The translations under genes and the position numbers were made by a program. DNA of 31,096 nt from a virus (lineage: Duplodnaviria; Heunggongvirae; Uroviricota; Caudoviricetes): the IMG/VR virus record IMGVR_UViG_2529293246_000004; one strand, 5' to 3'. Below, in pieces: positions 5,413-24,622 of the stretch; the stretch's first letter is position 1, and each line of letters opens with the position of its first letter. Under the pieces are notes generated by a model that was given only the letters and a program-made list of their open reading frames with translations, was not told the origin of the DNA and made no database searches.

Positions 5413-6603
5413 TTAATTGCTGTTAACCGAAGTGACCAGATTTGCCAGGTATTTATCGGTAATACGCTGGCGCAGGGTCAGGTTTTCGAGAGGAGGCACC
5501 GGTGTATAGTCGTAGTCGATATACAGTTTTCCGGCCTTGAGGGTTTCCGCATCGTTGGATTCTTCGCTGAACCAGCAGGTCGCATCCACGATATAGCCGT
5601 TTGTTTTCAGCTCACGGAATTTGGCATTGATGCCGTCAACGATGTCGCGAATCAGCGTTGCGGTGATGGGCTTGTCCACCGCCCACATGTGCGCCTCAGC
5701 CATCGTGTCGGCCAGCACCTGCGCGGTGCGGGTGTAGTTTTCAAAGAGGAACAGCGGGTCATCAGAGCAGGTACGGTTACCCCAGAAGCGGAAACCGTCA
5801 CGGCGAATCAGCGTTGTGACGCCTGACTCATTCAGCAGGTCAGCATCGGTGCCGGACTCCTGCAAATCCCAGAATACAGATGCGCTGATGCCGGTAACAC
5901 CGTTCACCCCGACGTTGGACAGCGTTTTATGCCAGCCCTGCTCCTGGTCGATTCTGGCACGCAGACCCAGCGCACGGGCGGTGGCATACGCGGTGGCGGT
6001 GGTACTGGCAACCGTATCCCATGCGAGGAAATCCGGCCAGATGACCATCAGCTCACGCTGGCTGAAATTCTGACGGTAGGCTTTCACCTCGGAAATGGTC
6101 TTACAGCCCCATGCGCTGATATATCCGAAAGCGCGCAGCTTCTGACAGACTGATGCCAGTGCAACAGCCACCTCTTTGGTATCCAGCCCCGGCACACCAA
6201 GAATACGCGGTTTAACACCGGTTACCGACTCCGCCGCCAGCAGGGCTTTCAGTCCGGTGTACTGACCGTTTTCGTCAGTGGTGCCGATGATATTGGAAAC
6301 GGTCTGCGCGAGTTTCGTTTCTTCGTCGTCGCCGGTTCCGTCTTCCACGCGCACGACAACGGTGACCGGTTTTGACTGGTCAGCGATGGCCTGCAACGAT
6401 GCCGCCAGCGTGCCTTTTTTACCGGCCTTTGCAATCGCGCTCTGCACATTGGTGATCAGCACCGGTTTATTGACGGGGAAGGTTTCCGCATCCGCATCGC
6501 TGGCCGTGCAGACCATGCCAACAATGGCGGTGGATACGGTGGAAATGACGCGGGTGCCGTCGTTAATCTCCAGCACCTGCACGCCGTGATGATAGTCACT
6601 CAT
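5413..6603 (-). CDS. FI: Contractile tail sheath protein FI
   Basis: 396 aa (P2 gpFI length). First gene of the FI-FII-E-T-U-D late operon. Confidence 0.9.
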   Translation of the reverse strand: MSDYHHGVQVLEINDGTRVISTVSTAIVGMVCTASDADAETFPVNKPVLITNVQSAIAKAGKKGTLAASLQAIADQSKPVTVVVRVEDGTGDDEETKLAQTVSNIIGTTDENGQYTGLKALLAAESVTGVKPRILGVPGLDTKEVAVALASVCQKLRAFGYISAWGCKTISEVKAYRQNFSQRELMVIWPDFLAWDTVASTTATAYATARALGLRARIDQEQGWHKTLSNVGVNGVTGISASVFWDLQESGTDADLLNESGVTTLIRRDGFRFWGNRTCSDDPLFLFENYTRTAQVLADTMAEAHMWAVDKPITATLIRDIVDGINAKFRELKTNGYIVDATCWFSEESNDAETLKAGKLYIDYDYTPVPPLENLTLRQRITDKYLANLVTSVNSN

Positions 6604-6700
6604 CCGTTTAACTCCGTGGTTAATGGGTGCAACTATTTTCTGTTGTGCAGAGCATGAGACGCTATTTGACCTGGCTGGTCAGTGGATGAAACAACAGATA
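6604..6700 (-). promoter_or_regulatory. Putative Ogr-dependent late promoter region (PF) upstream of FI
   Basis: Placed by operon logic: non-coding stretch immediately 5' of FI on the minus strand. I could not find a clean TGT-N12-ACA activator site by eye. Confidence 0.3.
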
Positions 6701-6707
6701 AAGAAAA

Positions 6708-6726
6708 GGCGGGCAATTCGCCCGCC
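6708..6726 (-). terminator. GC-rich hairpin followed by a T-tract on the minus strand
   Basis: GGCGGGC-aattc-GCCCGCC perfect 7-bp stem. On the minus strand it is followed by TTTTCTTT. Located between the cargo gene and the FI promoter region. Confidence 0.45.
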
Positions 6727-6862
6727 TGTCCTGATTTGTACTCACTCATTTTCCGACTGACAATTTACATAGCCAAAACACTATCATTTCCCTGACGTTA
6801 AGTTGTATCTTTGATAGGATTAAAAAATGTATAGATAGCTTATACTATTGAGGGAACAAAAA

Positions 6863-7672
6863 ATGACGCAAATTAGTGAACGATGGAAGCACAACGGCAT
6901 TACTAAAGGTTATTGCAATATTTGTGGAAAATATGACTTCCTCACAAAAGATCATGTTCCTCCAAAGTGTGCCATAACCTTAGGTCCTGTTCTTCAGAAA
7001 ACAGTTAGCGAATTTTTTGGTGTTCAGGAACCAGTTAAACCATTAAATGCTAAAAACGGCTCTTATTTCAAAACCATTTGCAGCCACTGTAACAATAAGG
7101 TGTTAGGTGGACTCGACGTTGCAATTGAAAATGTAGCAAAGTCCTTTAAAGAACAGTTGAGTCAATATATGAATGGTATGAATGTATATCCATTCATTAG
7201 AATACCTTTTGATAGCATATCTTTCACTAAGGCTATGATTGGACACGTGCTATCGGCAACTTCAGTTGAAGATTGTAAAAAAGAACCCGTAGATAGCCCC
7301 TTCTATACACCTTTAAAAGATTATGTTTTGGGTAAGAATCCAAGTTTTGAGGAGACTCATGATATTTACTACTGGTTTTACCCACACAGAATGCACATAT
7401 CAGCTCAAAGTGTAGCATTTATGAACGAAGGACATGTAGCATTTATTTGTGCTTTACATTTTTTTCCTATCGGTTTTATTATCACAATTAAAAATGAAGG
7501 AATATACCCTGCACACTCAACAAAATTAGAACTTAAAGATAAATTCCTTACATTTAACATGACATCTGTAAATTATGAGTATACGACATTTCCATTTGTA
7601 AATCTTAAGGGAAACCAAATGTATGCTATAAGCAACGGCCATACATGTGTGAGTTATCCAATAATTAAGTGA
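6863..7672 (+). CDS. Hypothetical cargo protein with N-terminal HNH-like zinc-finger nuclease motif (Z/fun-position moron)
   Basis: ORF 6848..7672 begins at a TTG; the first ATG is at 6863 with GAGGGAA about 8 nt upstream. N-terminus carries C-x2-C (CNIC), then DHVPP, then C-x2-C-N-x-K (CSHCNNK), the HNH/His-Me finger pattern. GC content is visibly low compared with the flanking tail genes. Opposite strand to the neighbouring structural genes. Confidence 0.6.
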   Translation: MTQISERWKHNGITKGYCNICGKYDFLTKDHVPPKCAITLGPVLQKTVSEFFGVQEPVKPLNAKNGSYFKTICSHCNNKVLGGLDVAIENVAKSFKEQLSQYMNGMNVYPFIRIPFDSISFTKAMIGHVLSATSVEDCKKEPVDSPFYTPLKDYVLGKNPSFEETHDIYYWFYPHRMHISAQSVAFMNEGHVAFICALHFFPIGFIITIKNEGIYPAHSTKLELKDKFLTFNMTSVNYEYTTFPFVNLKGNQMYAISNGHTCVSYPIIK

Positions 7673-7726
7673 CTGCTAGATCATAAAATCGACGCAAGTT
7701 CACTTTCTACATATACCATCTATAAT

Positions 7727-7750
7727 GTCCGCTCTTGGCACAGAGCGGAC
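7727..7750. terminator. Perfect 9-bp stem hairpin between convergent cargo gene and G
   Basis: GTCCGCTCT-tggcac-AGAGCGGAC. Sits in the 127-bp gap between the stop of the plus-strand cargo gene (7672) and the stop of minus-strand G (7800). The flanking U-tract is weak on both strands. Confidence 0.4.
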
Positions 7751-7799
7751 TGTCAGATTAGGCTTTACTCTATGCAATAGATATGTAAGCTCATACAAC

Positions 7800-8327
7800 T
7801 TATTGCGGCATTTCCGGCCATTCAGGATTTGCAGGATCCACACGACTGACCAGAACGCTGTAACGCTCCCATGCTTCCAGTCGGCTACGCTCCTCATCTG
7901 TTGCCATGTTCAGTCTGACCGCGCGCTCCAGCGGCAAAATCACGGATTCAGCATCTGCAAGAAGTCTAGCTTTCCGGTTTTCTGCCTGCTGCTGCAATTC
8001 CTCTGCCGTATAAATGCGTTTAATCACTTTGCCATCCTTAAACATCCAGTTCCCTGAAATGTCCGCCCGTCGGTTAGCAGTAATATCCGCCACTTCAACC
8101 ACACTTAATCCATCCGGTCTGATAGCTGTCACATCCTTTTCCACATAGCGGATAATATTATCTTTGTCGTACGCTATTTTTATCGTGTCATCAGCAAAAT
8201 ACTTTTGTTCTTCGTACCAGTTCTTACCATCTTCTGAAAAAAACCAGACAACATCAAAGTCCTTTGTCAATTGATATTGTTCAACCGTTTTTGGATTACC
8301 CGCCGTAATATTTTTTAAATGCTGCAT
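7800..8327 (-). CDS. G: Tail fibre assembly protein (chaperone)
   Basis: 175 aa (P2 gpG length), immediately downstream of H. AT-richer than the core genes. Confidence 0.82.
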
Positions 8328-8330
8328 AAA

Positions 8331-10580
8331 TTATACCTGCGCCACGTTATACCATGTCCCGTTAATGTATTTCTGCACCGGTCTGTAATATACGCCACCA
8401 ATGTTATCGGCAGAGTTTGAGCCGGTATCCTGAACAATAATGCCGGTATATACGCAACCTGACGGAGCCTGATGCGTCCATGTAATACCATTATTTGCTG
8501 GTTTATATGTAGATGCACCGCCCAGCCGCATGTCTCTCACATAACGTGAATCTGACTCAGCTTTGGTGTATGCACCAACATCTCCCGCTGAGGGTTTATG
8601 AGCAGTTGTATATAGTTGCGCCCATCCAGACCAGTTAGCATCTGTGGTATCTCGTCGGGAGCGAATATATGCCGGAGCATGAGCACCGCTGGTTCCACTC
8701 CAGCCAATAAGTAACTCACCCTCTCCTACTGCGGTTACACCAGTGAGATGAAGCACATTACCATAGGCTGTTGGGTAGCCATTGTTGTATGCCTCATACA
8801 TCTGAATACCTGGTGTCCCCTTTACGCTCCCACCTAATGCAGTAACACGGTTTCTGGAAACCAGTGTATTAATATTTATATCGGCAGAGCCATCAAATCT
8901 GACACCATTAATATTTCTTGCGTTCGCTAACTTTGTTGCTGTTGCAGCATTTCCTGAAAGGCTGGAAATAAATGGATGTGAGCAGTAATAACCGCGCCCA
9001 TTTTTAAAATCCAGAATAGCCTGCGCGTTCGTGCTTTCTGTAGCGGGATTAGTTGCCCCCCACTTATATGTCGTCTGACCGACGACATAATCCTCTGTCG
9101 GAACAATAACCGTTAGCCCTTCCTCTGCAAGAATTTGTACAGGGAAAGCTCTGGCTTCAACATAAAAAACACTACATACATCATCATCTTTCAGGCTTGT
9201 AACAATGGAATGAATTGAACGCTCATTAGTCTGATACGTCCAGAAATAACCTGCCGCATATGAACCACGATCAGTCCAGCCTCCGGGCATAACCATGCCA
9301 TTAAACTCGCAGTTATTCATTACATAATCGCTGTTATAACAACCAGTGGAAATAACGACGCGGGATGCCATTTCTCCTGAAAGGCTGGCAGCACGGCGAA
9401 AGATAACGGGATACCACTTCCCGGCAACGACATTTGCAGGGGCTGCAAACGAATACTTTCGCATTCCCTTTTTCTTATCCACTTCACCTTTGCTGTAAAC
9501 ATTAATGTTACTCAGGAAGCGCCCTTTATCAGGAATATCCGCACCGTTCTGATCTTTCTGAAGACGTTTTTCAGCATTGTCATAGGCAGACTTCACCGCT
9601 TTTGGTGTTGCAGCCAGCGTTTCAGAATCACTGTTGGTGGCGCTACTGAGCTGGACAAGACCTTTTCGCGCCGTGGTGGCATCCTGTGCAGTGTATTTCC
9701 CGTTAGCAAGGTCATACGCGGCCTTTACCGCCTTTGGCGTTGCCGCAAGCGTTTCAGAATCGCTGTTGGTGACGCTACTGAGCTGGACAAGACCTTTTCG
9801 CGCTGTGGTGGCGTCCTGTGCAGTGTATTTCCCGTTAGCAAGGTCATACGCGGCCTTTACCGCTTTTGGTGTTGCGGCGAGCGTTTCAGACGTGCTGTTG
9901 GTGGCACTACTGAGCTGGACAAGGCCTTTTCGCGCTGTGGTGGCGTCCTGTGCGGTATATTTCCCGTTAGCAAGGTCATACGCGGCCTTTACCGCTTTCG
10001 GCGTTGCGGCCAGTGTTTCAGATGTGCTGTTGGTCGCACTGCTTAACTGAGTAAAACCTTTTGCGGTCAGCGAGGCGTCCGGGTGACGTCGTGACTGTTC
10101 GTGCTCTGCAATTTTGTCATCAACGTAATCCTGTGTCGCCATCACCGTTGTGGTGTCAATGGTCAGCTCCACCGAGGCCACACTGCTGACGATGATGACC
10201 ATGCGACAGGTCTGCGAACGCCCTGAGCCTTCGGCAAGAGCTGGCTTATAACTTTCGGCCATGTTCGCCACGGCAATTAACGTTCCCGCATCATCGTACA
10301 GGCCAAGCTCACGCATCCAGAAACCGCCCACCTCCGGCGGAATAACCAGCTCTGCGATAATATAATTACTGTTTCGTTTGTCCTGGCTGATTTTGTTCAG
10401 CGTATGTCGCCAGACTTCGTGGATAAGCCCAGTCTGTCCGGCATCCGGGACAGGCAATTTACCACCGCCATCCCCGACGGCCATCGTGGTAATGTTGACC
10501 TTCCGCCCTCCCGGTGCGGTTGCCGCTGCCAGCTTTGCTGCACCGGCAGTGGTGATAACGGTTTTGAATTTTGTGCTCAT
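8331..10580 (-). CDS. H: Tail fibre protein H
   Basis: 749 aa. N-terminus MSTKFKTVITTAGAAKLAAA is typical of P2 gpH. ATG at 10580..10578 with GAGGA upstream. Contains four tandem copies of a 44-aa fibre repeat (LSSATNSTSETLAATPKAVKAAYDLANGKYTAQDATTARKGLVQ). The C-terminal half is divergent and AT-richer. Confidence 0.9.
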   Translation of the reverse strand: MSTKFKTVITTAGAAKLAAATAPGGRKVNITTMAVGDGGGKLPVPDAGQTGLIHEVWRHTLNKISQDKRNSNYIIAELVIPPEVGGFWMRELGLYDDAGTLIAVANMAESYKPALAEGSGRSQTCRMVIIVSSVASVELTIDTTTVMATQDYVDDKIAEHEQSRRHPDASLTAKGFTQLSSATNSTSETLAATPKAVKAAYDLANGKYTAQDATTARKGLVQLSSATNSTSETLAATPKAVKAAYDLANGKYTAQDATTARKGLVQLSSVTNSDSETLAATPKAVKAAYDLANGKYTAQDATTARKGLVQLSSATNSDSETLAATPKAVKSAYDNAEKRLQKDQNGADIPDKGRFLSNINVYSKGEVDKKKGMRKYSFAAPANVVAGKWYPVIFRRAASLSGEMASRVVISTGCYNSDYVMNNCEFNGMVMPGGWTDRGSYAAGYFWTYQTNERSIHSIVTSLKDDDVCSVFYVEARAFPVQILAEEGLTVIVPTEDYVVGQTTYKWGATNPATESTNAQAILDFKNGRGYYCSHPFISSLSGNAATATKLANARNINGVRFDGSADININTLVSRNRVTALGGSVKGTPGIQMYEAYNNGYPTAYGNVLHLTGVTAVGEGELLIGWSGTSGAHAPAYIRSRRDTTDANWSGWAQLYTTAHKPSAGDVGAYTKAESDSRYVRDMRLGGASTYKPANNGITWTHQAPSGCVYTGIIVQDTGSNSADNIGGVYYRPVQKYINGTWYNVAQV
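9590..10080. repeat. Tandem direct repeats, 132-bp unit, about 3.7 copies, inside H
   Basis: Near-identical 132-nt units begin at about 9615, 9747, 9879 and 10011 (agcgtttcagaatc...ctgagctggacaag...). They are in frame and encode the 44-aa repeat. The repetitive plus-strand ORF 9634..10050 is their antisense shadow. Confidence 0.85.
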
Positions 10581-10590
10581 TATTCCTCAC

Positions 10591-11121
10591 TTATCCGGGG
10601 TAAACCGTAATTACATCGCCGTCGTAAGCCACACCACCGGCGAACAGGTGGCCGGGAATGTCCCGGGTAATGTTCAGGCCAATAAGGCGGCGGCTTGCAG
10701 GTTTGGCATCAGCAATCAGCCGTTCCATTTCCTGATACATTGCCTCTGTGATGCCGCTTTCCAGTACACCAATATCAAGCCGGAAGGTGCCGGGCGGGTC
10801 ACTGTTTTCCCACCACTCCGTCACGTTGATGAGATAGCCGAGCGGCTCCACCACACGCCGGATTGCACCTATTGTGCCTTTATGACAGTGGATGAAATAC
10901 GCATCGCGGATAACGGCGCGTTTTGTCGCTTCCGGCCACTTTTCATCCCACCTGTCGACCGAAAACGCCCACGCCAGCCACGGCAGCAGATTTGCCGGGC
11001 AGGTGTCCGGGTTCCACAGCTCACGAATACTGACCGGCGTTTTTTCAATTTCCGCACAGGCTTTTGCGGCGGCAACTTCAAGCGGTGATGAGCCGGTCGG
11101 CAGCAGGCGCGAATCACTCAT
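10591..11121 (-). CDS. I: Baseplate assembly protein I
   Basis: 176 aa (P2 gpI length), between J and H. Confidence 0.88.
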   Translation of the reverse strand: MSDSRLLPTGSSPLEVAAAKACAEIEKTPVSIRELWNPDTCPANLLPWLAWAFSVDRWDEKWPEATKRAVIRDAYFIHCHKGTIGAIRRVVEPLGYLINVTEWWENSDPPGTFRLDIGVLESGITEAMYQEMERLIADAKPASRRLIGLNITRDIPGHLFAGGVAYDGDVITVYPG

Positions 11122-22679: not shown

Positions 22680-23621
22680 ATGCAAGGTGAAGTTGACGAA
22701 CAGCAACCAAATGAGATTATTTCGGAGTTTGGATACTATCCAGTAGAAGTTAACATTGAGACTGAACAATTTTCTTTGCGTACTTTACCCGGTCTTATTG
22801 AGAAAGTGGAACGTATTAACAATGATAAAAACGTTGTTAATGGTTGGATATACCCTGGGAATCGAGAGGTATATAACCTTAATGGTGACTCATGCACAAT
22901 GCCTTATAGTTACCGAGTATTCGGCATGCCCAAAACGCACACACTAAAATTAAAAAACACATCCTCGTTAGAAACTCTCAACTTTGTTGTGTGGTGCCTC
23001 TCTTTTTTCAAGGGTATAAGATTGACAACCACTGACGCTGGTTTTCTTGATGCAACCACTATCAAGCCCACTAAGTTAACCGATTTTATTCTCGTTGGAT
23101 GCTCTGAAAAAGAAGTCATAGAACTGGCTCTTAATTATATAACTAACAAACAAAAGGATGCGCACTCCCCCAAAAGAATTGCGGCAGTGGTGCATGCGCT
23201 ATTCTTATCTCAAAACCCACAATACCTTCCTTTTGAAAAATTCCAGTACCTTTACATGGCACTTGATGGTTGCTTTGCTTTATCGTGGGCTGAGCATGAC
23301 AAGGCTCCTGATAAAACCCAGCCAAATCATTCCAAGCGATTAAAGTGGATGTGCAGAATTTATGGGTTATCAATCCCCACATGGGTATCAGGCAAAAAAA
23401 ACATTTCTGGCATCCGCAATGATAATTTTCATGAGGCTATTTTTTTTGGCCAACCACTTGGTTTTTCCAGTGTTAACAACAATCAATATGGTAACGATAT
23501 ATTACTGCAAATGCAGAAACTCGTTTGTCGCCTATTAGCGGCAATACTGTCGGTTAATGATTGCGGTTATCTCAAATCTTCGGTCAACTCACGAGAGTAC
23601 CATTCATTAAAATTAACTTAA
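22680..23621 (+). CDS. Hypothetical cargo protein, 313 aa, at the position P2 uses for old
   Basis: ATG at 22680 with GGAGA 7 nt upstream. AT-rich. I recognise no conserved motif and see no Walker A P-loop. Opposite strand to the early operon, as P2 old is. Confidence 0.6.
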   Translation: MQGEVDEQQPNEIISEFGYYPVEVNIETEQFSLRTLPGLIEKVERINNDKNVVNGWIYPGNREVYNLNGDSCTMPYSYRVFGMPKTHTLKLKNTSSLETLNFVVWCLSFFKGIRLTTTDAGFLDATTIKPTKLTDFILVGCSEKEVIELALNYITNKQKDAHSPKRIAAVVHALFLSQNPQYLPFEKFQYLYMALDGCFALSWAEHDKAPDKTQPNHSKRLKWMCRIYGLSIPTWVSGKKNISGIRNDNFHEAIFFGQPLGFSSVNNNQYGNDILLQMQKLVCRLLAAILSVNDCGYLKSSVNSREYHSLKLT

Positions 23622-23941: not shown

Positions 23942-24622
23942 CTACATCTTTATTGCATATTTATTAAAAGACGCCCAGTTCAACAAAAAAACATTATTCA
24001 TATACCATTCAATATAATTTTTATTTTTAGATTGACTGTCAAGTAGCACACAAACATCAACCTGTTTATCAATCAATTTTGCAATATAAACCACAAACTC
24101 AACACTCGAATATCTCTTTGTGCCTAGCAAATATAATATTTCATCTGACAAATAATTAGACTCATGTGAAAAGACATTATCATTTAACAAAATCAATCCG
24201 CCAATCGAGTCATTTAAATCCAAAACATCCTTTGTTGCATTTATTTGCTTATTAGCTTCTTTAACTACCTTTGTTTTAATATTTTCATAAGCAAAGTTCA
24301 TTATATCATTTCTAAATCGCTTTGAGTCTGGGTGTCTTTTTATCAACTCTTCTAAATGAATAGCACCATGCCAGTTTTTTGCAAGCCAACTATCAGTTTT
24401 AACCAACTCATTCAGTTTATCATTGACATTCTTGACCCTGTCAGAAAAAAGACTTTTCATCTCCAAAATTATCTTTTTATTATCAATAAGATAATCTGCC
24501 ATCTTGCGATTCTGACCATCCTTCATCCGGAACTTATGATGAATATCATCAATAGAAATCCCTTTTTCATGCTCAACAATGAATCTCTTAACATTGTTTT
24601 CTAATTCGCTGTATTGTTTCAT
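23942..24622 (-). CDS. Hypothetical cargo protein, 226 aa, at the position P2 uses for tin
   Basis: ATG at 24622 with GGGGGA upstream. Markedly AT-rich, Lys/Asn-rich protein with no motif I recognise. Directly downstream of a small gene on the same strand. Confidence 0.6.
   Translation of the reverse strand: MKQYSELENNVKRFIVEHEKGISIDDIHHKFRMKDGQNRKMADYLIDNKKIILEMKSLFSDRVKNVNDKLNELVKTDSWLAKNWHGAIHLEELIKRHPDSKRFRNDIMNFAYENIKTKVVKEANKQINATKDVLDLNDSIGGLILLNDNVFSHESNYLSDEILYLLGTKRYSSVEFVVYIAKLIDKQVDVCVLLDSQSKNKNYIEWYMNNVFLLNWASFNKYAIKM

Follow-up and report, generated by a model that had tools for sequence, protein, structure and literature searches.

Phage tail fibers combine a conserved N-terminal part with exchangeable distal parts that are attached to it at short sequences held in common, and the distal parts are shared among P2, Mu, P1, and lambdoid phages. 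Such mosaics reportedly arise by recombination at shared motifs, as is said to have been described by Haggard-Ljungquist et al. in 1992 and by Sandmeier in 1994. For the P2 fiber protein gpH, a cryo-electron microscopy preprint describes a trimer of approximately 54 nm with "two repeat domains" following the adaptor domain (10.64898/2026.09.14.750843), in agreement with the two repeat units that we count in the P2 sequence. The DNA analyzed here, in the following called the window, is the complete 31,096-nucleotide (nt) stretch of IMG/VR virus record IMGVR_UViG_2529293246_000004, which is a P2-like (Peduovirus) prophage of Escherichia coli. Its tail-fiber gene H carries four tandem copies of a 132-nt unit, the number of which differs among close relatives by whole units, and the array ends at the joint between the conserved and the exchangeable part of the fiber. 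The gene, its N-terminal domain, and the four units (aa, amino acids; ORF, open reading frame) are as follows.

8331..10580, minus strand: gene H, P2-type tail fiber of 749 aa, a single ORF with PF12571 and four PF03406 stretches (Pfam)
10128..10580, minus strand: N-terminal tail-collar/baseplate-adaptor domain, aa 1-151 (PF12571 at 3e-58)
9948..10079, minus strand: unit 1, aa 168-211, the full unit with the greatest divergence, 25-29 of 132 bases off units 2 and 3
9816..9947, minus strand: unit 2, aa 212-255, internal, 92% identity to unit 3
9684..9815, minus strand: unit 3, aa 256-299, internal, 10 of 132 bases off unit 2
9552..9683, minus strand: unit 4, aa 300-343, terminal, with the repeat kept only in its first 93 nt (9591-9683)

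With Tandem Repeats Finder, one array is detected at 9579-10034 (period 132, 3.5 copies, 91% matches, no indels, score 723). In the protein register of H, this array resolves into four head-to-tail 44-aa units spanning 9552-10079, all of them in frame within the 749-aa ORF. The self-match at an offset of 132 nt reaches 295 of 324 positions, compared with a maximum of 122 over 20 codon shuffles of gene H. An earlier note on this DNA had described four in-frame 132-bp copies encoding a 44-aa repeat at 9590-10080; both the array and the protein register bear this out, and the coordinates are right to within approximately 40 nt at the distal end. Its description of the copies as near-identical, with differences at only a few bases, was overstated: 10 of 132 positions distinguish unit 2 from unit 3, whereas unit 1 differs from unit 2 at 25 (81% identity) and from unit 3 at 29. 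Units 3 and 4 show 32 differences over the full unit, only 9 of which fall in the first 93 nt, followed by complete divergence after the motif AVKSAYD. The observation is thus partly confirmed, the repeat being real and its copies not near-identical. The longest perfect runs between adjacent units measure 50, 41, 31, and 29 nt. Differences between units lie mostly at third codon positions (7 of 10, 8 of 9, and 15 of 25) and consist largely of transitions; the protein sequence has therefore been conserved while the DNA drifted.

The units belong to the family PF03406 (Phage_fiber_2), which matches H in four stretches with 263.6 bits (gathering cut-off 22; E = 4.1e-80), each unit spanning almost the whole model (for example, profile positions 1-41 of 42). 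These stretches sit between the tail-collar domain and the receptor-binding end as four tandem units with 44-aa spacing. Unit 1 was found in every relative examined; the five named reference phages all have it starting at aa 168. A 138-aa antisense ORF at 9634-10050 on the plus strand lies entirely within the array; in all likelihood, it merely results from the composition of the repeat and is no gene.

A comparison of the number of H repeats among related prophages, as proposed in the earlier note, shows that this number varies in exact steps of 132 nt. Compared were the 120 top-scoring proteins out of 8,000 and the 80 top-scoring loci out of at least 594; both samples are biased towards the query, so that the proportions of the copy-number classes are not population frequencies. 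In the best 120 protein clusters, 7 proteins carry two units, 54 carry three, and 60 carry four. Their lengths follow suit, with 44 proteins of 749 aa (four units), 50 of 705 aa (three units), and 7 of 661 aa (two units); 13 further clusters are 741 aa long, having four units and an alternative tip segment. Outside the array, the aligned cluster proteins are essentially identical to H of the window, from which they differ by whole 44-residue blocks, the exceptions being the alternative tip in the 741- and 697-aa alleles and another N-terminal domain in one cluster (P0119). The 80 IMG/VR loci sharing the N-terminal part have two to five units, and the 44-residue spacing is kept in 235 of 235 intervals. 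One of these loci combines five units with the distal end of the window, so that relatives with this very distal end carry two, three, four, or five units. The claim of the earlier note that copy number is changeable is borne out in this respect. Moreover, copy number varies inside five distal-end types (3/4, 3/4, 4/5, 3/4/5, and 4/5 units).

At the DNA level, the window was aligned with two three-copy alleles and one two-copy allele. Genes V-W-J-I, nt 1-501 of H, and distal H plus G are colinear at 97-98% identity, and the length offsets from the window are exactly 132 nt (CP048604, a complete genome), 132 nt (the second three-copy allele), and 264 nt (the two-copy allele). Among named phages, one unit is present in the P2 isolate P2SIAC10 (OU784549), two in P2 and Wphi, and three in fiAA91-ss and PSP3; a P2-like H with six units is also represented (P0124). 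Unrelated fiber backbones contain 7 to 12 nearly identical units. In four proteins (P0121-P0124), some of which have quite different N-terminal domains, the 44-aa unit recurs near residue for residue 6 to 12 times, and several of the four show a higher-order repeat of 101 aa in which the 44-aa unit alternates with a 57-aa unit containing HTHPWNQITG.

The flanks and the identity of the retained units indicate how these alleles are related. Two-, three-, and five-unit alleles of the fiber type found in the window are only 14 of 1,722 flank bases apart, and another three-copy allele groups with four-copy alleles by its flanks. The internal unit kept in three-copy alleles is unit-3-like in three loci (L061, L062, and L072) and unit-2-like in a fourth (L080). 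In the five-copy allele (L054), two neighboring units are 100% identical, representing an exact duplicate of the allele's own unit 3; the duplicated unit is closest to unit 3 of the window (126 of 132 bases). In a further locus (L043), unit 2 is replaced by unit-3-type sequence (99%). It is consistently the internal units that are gained, lost, or converted in relatives. As judged from these sequence comparisons, changes of copy number are recurrent and independent.

The polymorphism of the units points in the same direction. In 44 distinct four-copy arrays, identity across genes amounts to 90.7% between units 2, 93.2% between units 3, and 88.4% between unit 2 and unit 3; corresponding units are hardly more alike than non-corresponding ones, and shared polymorphisms recur in both unit 2 and unit 3 in many combinations. 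Pairwise diversity, computed on 52 genes in register, has medians of 4.5-7.6% for the units versus 2.2% for the N-terminal domain, i.e., 2 to 3.5 times as much. These patterns are the expected trace of repeated unequal exchange and conversion between units; exchange with the PF03406 repeat in other fiber genes may also have contributed to them.

The array adjoins the point at which H changes from a shared to an exchangeable gene. The features distal to it are the following.

9531..9551, minus strand: main mosaic joint, codons QNGADIP, aa 344-350, where the match of many relatives ends
8331..9530, minus strand: distal receptor-binding part of H, of lower guanine-plus-cytosine (GC) content (0.43-0.51), with further joints near 8938 and 8552
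7800..8327, minus strand: gene G, tail-fiber assembly chaperone, which travels with the distal end of H (PF02413 Caudo_TAP at 6.7e-35)

Many Peduovirus H genes match the query at 97-98% as far as nt 1049, where the match ends. Of 51 four-copy relatives, 37 lose their similarity to the window at gene nt ~1032-1049 (window ~9532), approximately 20 nt past unit 4. Across the N-terminal part and the array, GC content stays at 0.54-0.57; it drops to 0.43-0.47 immediately beyond the array and is lower still through G and the next cargo gene. The suggestion that the repeats mark a junction between a conserved N-terminal part and a divergent, AT-richer distal part thus agrees both with the drop in GC content and with the collapse of similarity, and the alignment of distal H proposed for locating the mosaic breakpoint places the main joint just past the array. 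Taken together, the earlier interpretation, namely, a changeable copy number and an array situated at a mosaic joint, is supported. For relatives that have both fewer units and a different distal end, the match ends at query nt 594, 726, 858, or 990. Each of these positions is nt 93 of a unit, the point beyond which the final unit in every allele ceases to follow the repeat.

Further joints lie within the distal part. Relatives of the P22H4/9W type match no further than query nt 1643 (window ~8938), and the 741-aa alleles swap a short tip segment (aa ~677-735) from a joint at aa ~677 (window ~8552). The tip of H resembles Mu S/S' and a "short tail fiber" in PDB (8ju3, 5yvq, and 9cuy). The block of distal H and G retains 98% identity across two-, three-, and four-copy alleles. 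In one two-copy relative (L082), a 64-aa Caudo_TAP fragment at 6540-6734 lies downstream of an intact G; it looks like the remnant of an earlier fiber-chaperone module left after a past exchange.

The late genes of the window are on the minus strand in the P2 order, with I (PF09684) upstream and G (PF02413) downstream of H, and the region is colinear with P2. Judging by this I-H-G gene order and by its similarity to P2 H, the gene encodes gpH. Its first 858 nt show 95% identity to P2 H, apart from one 132-nt unit absent from P2, and its N-terminal part has 95-98% DNA identity to the H genes of P2, Wphi, and other members of Peduovirus. Among relatives, the N-terminal domain is the best-conserved portion of H, as reflected in the low median pairwise difference given above.

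We consider it probable that the units are tandem Phage_fiber_2 modules whose copy number is changed by misaligned homologous recombination, and that the end of the array serves as a crossover point. According to this proposal, the four units would form the proximal shaft of the trimeric gpH, with the N-terminal domain, which binds the baseplate, on one side and the exchangeable receptor-binding end on the other. A unit comprises exactly 44 codons, and its gain or loss therefore keeps the reading frame; each such event would lengthen or shorten the fiber by one module. Internal units would be added, removed, or converted by homologous recombination in a misaligned register, whether inside H or involving a different fiber gene or phage genome, and the end of the last unit would be the crossover through which the conserved N-terminal part acquires different distal modules together with the G chaperone that belongs to each. 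Each unit presumably adds a fixed length to the shaft, so that copy number would alter the length or reach of the fiber. An AlphaFold2 monomer model of aa 141-400 of H was discarded; with a mean predicted local distance difference test value of 43, it represented all-helical guesswork.

At 29-50 nt, the perfect runs come close to the shortest length that permits efficient RecA-dependent exchange. Ectopic partners are available as well: the number of sites resembling gene H in E. coli genomes has a median of 2 and reaches 13, and lambdoid genes of the "prophage tail fiber N-terminal domain" (stf) type match the repeat at 82-88% DNA identity. Weighing against the proposed recombination is the divergence of the units, since differences of 8-24% should make RecA-dependent exchange rare and opposed by mismatch repair. 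A further reservation is that some alleles stem from short-read assemblies, yet both three-copy (CP048604 and CP055048) and four-copy alleles are found in complete genomes. A total of 1,933 complete E. coli genomes match gene H.

Alternatively, copy number might be mainly a by-product of register-shifted swaps of fiber modules among P2-like, Mu-like, and lambdoid phages or prophages, with little slippage or unequal exchange inside the gene. Such swaps would account for the near residue-for-residue presence of the unit in unrelated backbones and for its match to the lambdoid stf-type genes, for the elevated polymorphism of the units relative to the N-terminal domain, and for mosaic joints that are in register with the unit. 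There is also a published precedent, namely, exchange involving the tail-fiber genes of a P2-like prophage and a lambdoid one inside a single E. coli isolate (10.1101/2022.05.07.487787). In contrast, the exact duplication of a neighboring unit in the five-copy allele and the conversion of a unit 2 to the allele's own unit-3 type are most simply intragenic, and the flanks on both sides of the array stay of one type across the two- to five-copy series. We therefore regard swapping as a real possibility for the principal source of the variation, though one that we would not expect to hold; the intragenic and inter-phage routes are not mutually exclusive.

A more far-reaching possibility is that the array is a selected length dial and universal adaptor. 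Unit number would then be tuned to the thickness of the O-antigen or capsule or to the size of the distal module, and the DNA of the unit would be kept alike across P2-like, Mu-like, and lambdoid prophages as a shared crossover site for receptor-binding ends. The range of unit numbers behind this idea extends from 1 to 6 in P2-like fibers and to 12 or more elsewhere. We consider it speculative and rather unlikely.

It appears improbable that the array is old and stable, with copy numbers that mark a few ancient lineages and no ongoing change. An invariant repeat number combined with synonymous divergence between the copies had been named in advance as pointing to such a structure; the divergence is indeed present and mainly synonymous, so the array itself is not new, whereas the number varies. 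Stability is also suggested by the 41 best complete-genome matches, all of which are four-copy, and by the equal length of the gene in three isolates from one hospital (Z142-2, -4, and -7). Against this stand the near-identical flanks of the two-, three-, and five-unit alleles and the separate three-copy allele among four-copy ones, the loss of different units in different three-copy alleles together with one 100% duplicate and one conversion, and the variation of copy number within five distal-end types. A stable array is thereby largely refuted.

Assembly artifacts, i.e., collapse or expansion of the tandem repeat in short-read data, are a very improbable source of the differences, even though the comparison includes many draft or metagenome contigs. 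Units of 132 nt that diverge by 8-24% are easy to assemble, complete genomes include both three-copy and four-copy alleles (among them locus L081), every variant keeps an intact ORF and differs by exact multiples of 132 nt, and individually sequenced reference phages carry one, two, or three units.

Programmed variation, for which only the location of the repeat within a host-range gene, the usual place of such systems, would speak, has a negligible likelihood in any of its forms: a phase-variable contingency repeat is rejected because a unit of 132 nt, or 44 codons, allows no frame switch and all variants keep the ORF; an invertible switch of the Mu G or P1 C type is rejected because 6500-10700 contains no inverted repeats of at least 16 nt, and domain scans of the ORFs next to H and G gave no recombinase domain; and the target of a diversity-generating retroelement is rejected because the differences are mostly third-position transitions rather than adenine-specific and the copies are tandem and all coding, with no reverse-transcriptase domain in the ORFs scanned next to H and G (a scan of the whole window was not run).

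Apart from the fiber genes, the window contains cargo ORFs at two positions. An ORF at 6863-7672 on the plus strand (269 aa; GC content 0.30-0.38) lies between G and FI, where P2 carries fun(Z). Pfam, PADLOC, and NCBIfam gave no match to it, the only one being phrog_21495 (function unknown); by eye, the ORF shows a CxxC...DHVPP...CxxCN motif reminiscent of HNH nucleases. In relatives, the G-FI site holds a 352-aa hypothetical protein (L081), a 224-aa ORF next to a RES-domain protein (L082), or a 197-aa ORF (L084); such differing cargo is typical of a variable cargo or defense hotspot. Two further cargo ORFs, 22680-23621 on the plus strand (313 aa) and 23942-24622 on the minus strand (226 aa), lie between Q and A, the old/tin position in P2; nothing was found for them in Pfam, PADLOC, or NCBIfam, and their only matches are phrog_5937 and phrog_20483 (function unknown).

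With shafts made of stackable modules, temperate phages can alter their reach and swap receptor-binding ends while leaving the attachment to the baseplate untouched. The natural series described here, comprising one fiber with two, three, four, or five units and named phages with one, two, or three, could serve to examine whether shaft length bears on adsorption or host range. For the engineering of chimeric P2 fibers, it suggests cutting either past nt 93 of a unit or past NGADIP.

Proteins 99-100% identical to H of the window were already public, and PF03406 is included in the precomputed domain list of the collection. In the searchable literature, we found neither a series of one to six units in P2-like H genes nor recurrent gain, loss, or conversion of units within one fiber type.

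In comparison with the described systems, Mu S (PDB 5yvq, 8ju3, and 9ki1) resembles H of the window in having one unit followed by NGADIP (S 99-173 versus H 288-362) and a related C-terminal tip. Mu differs in its single unit and its other mode of N-terminal attachment, and its tip is varied by the invertible G segment, which has no counterpart here. P2 gpH (AF063097) shares with the window the V-W-J-I-H-G operon, the N-terminal domain, and unit 1; it has two units instead of four, and its different distal end begins AVKTVMDETNKK..., the window having AVKSAYDNAEKRLQKDQNGADIP... at this place. Within the family PF03406 as a whole, which includes lambda Stf, E. coli prophage Stf, Mu S, and P2 gpH, a unit of this type occurs in 4,881 representative protein clusters, and the best matches carry 2 to 22 copies per protein. 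Relative to this family, the allele of the window shows nothing essentially different, being set apart by its four copies, the internal two of which are unusually similar in DNA sequence (92% identity). PF03406 itself, its occurrence in P2 gpH, and the mosaicism of tail fibers are established, and the locus represents no new kind of system. Its addition to the picture of mosaic tail fibers is a modest descriptive one, consisting of a unit count that ranges from one to six and of the recurrent gain, loss, and conversion of units.

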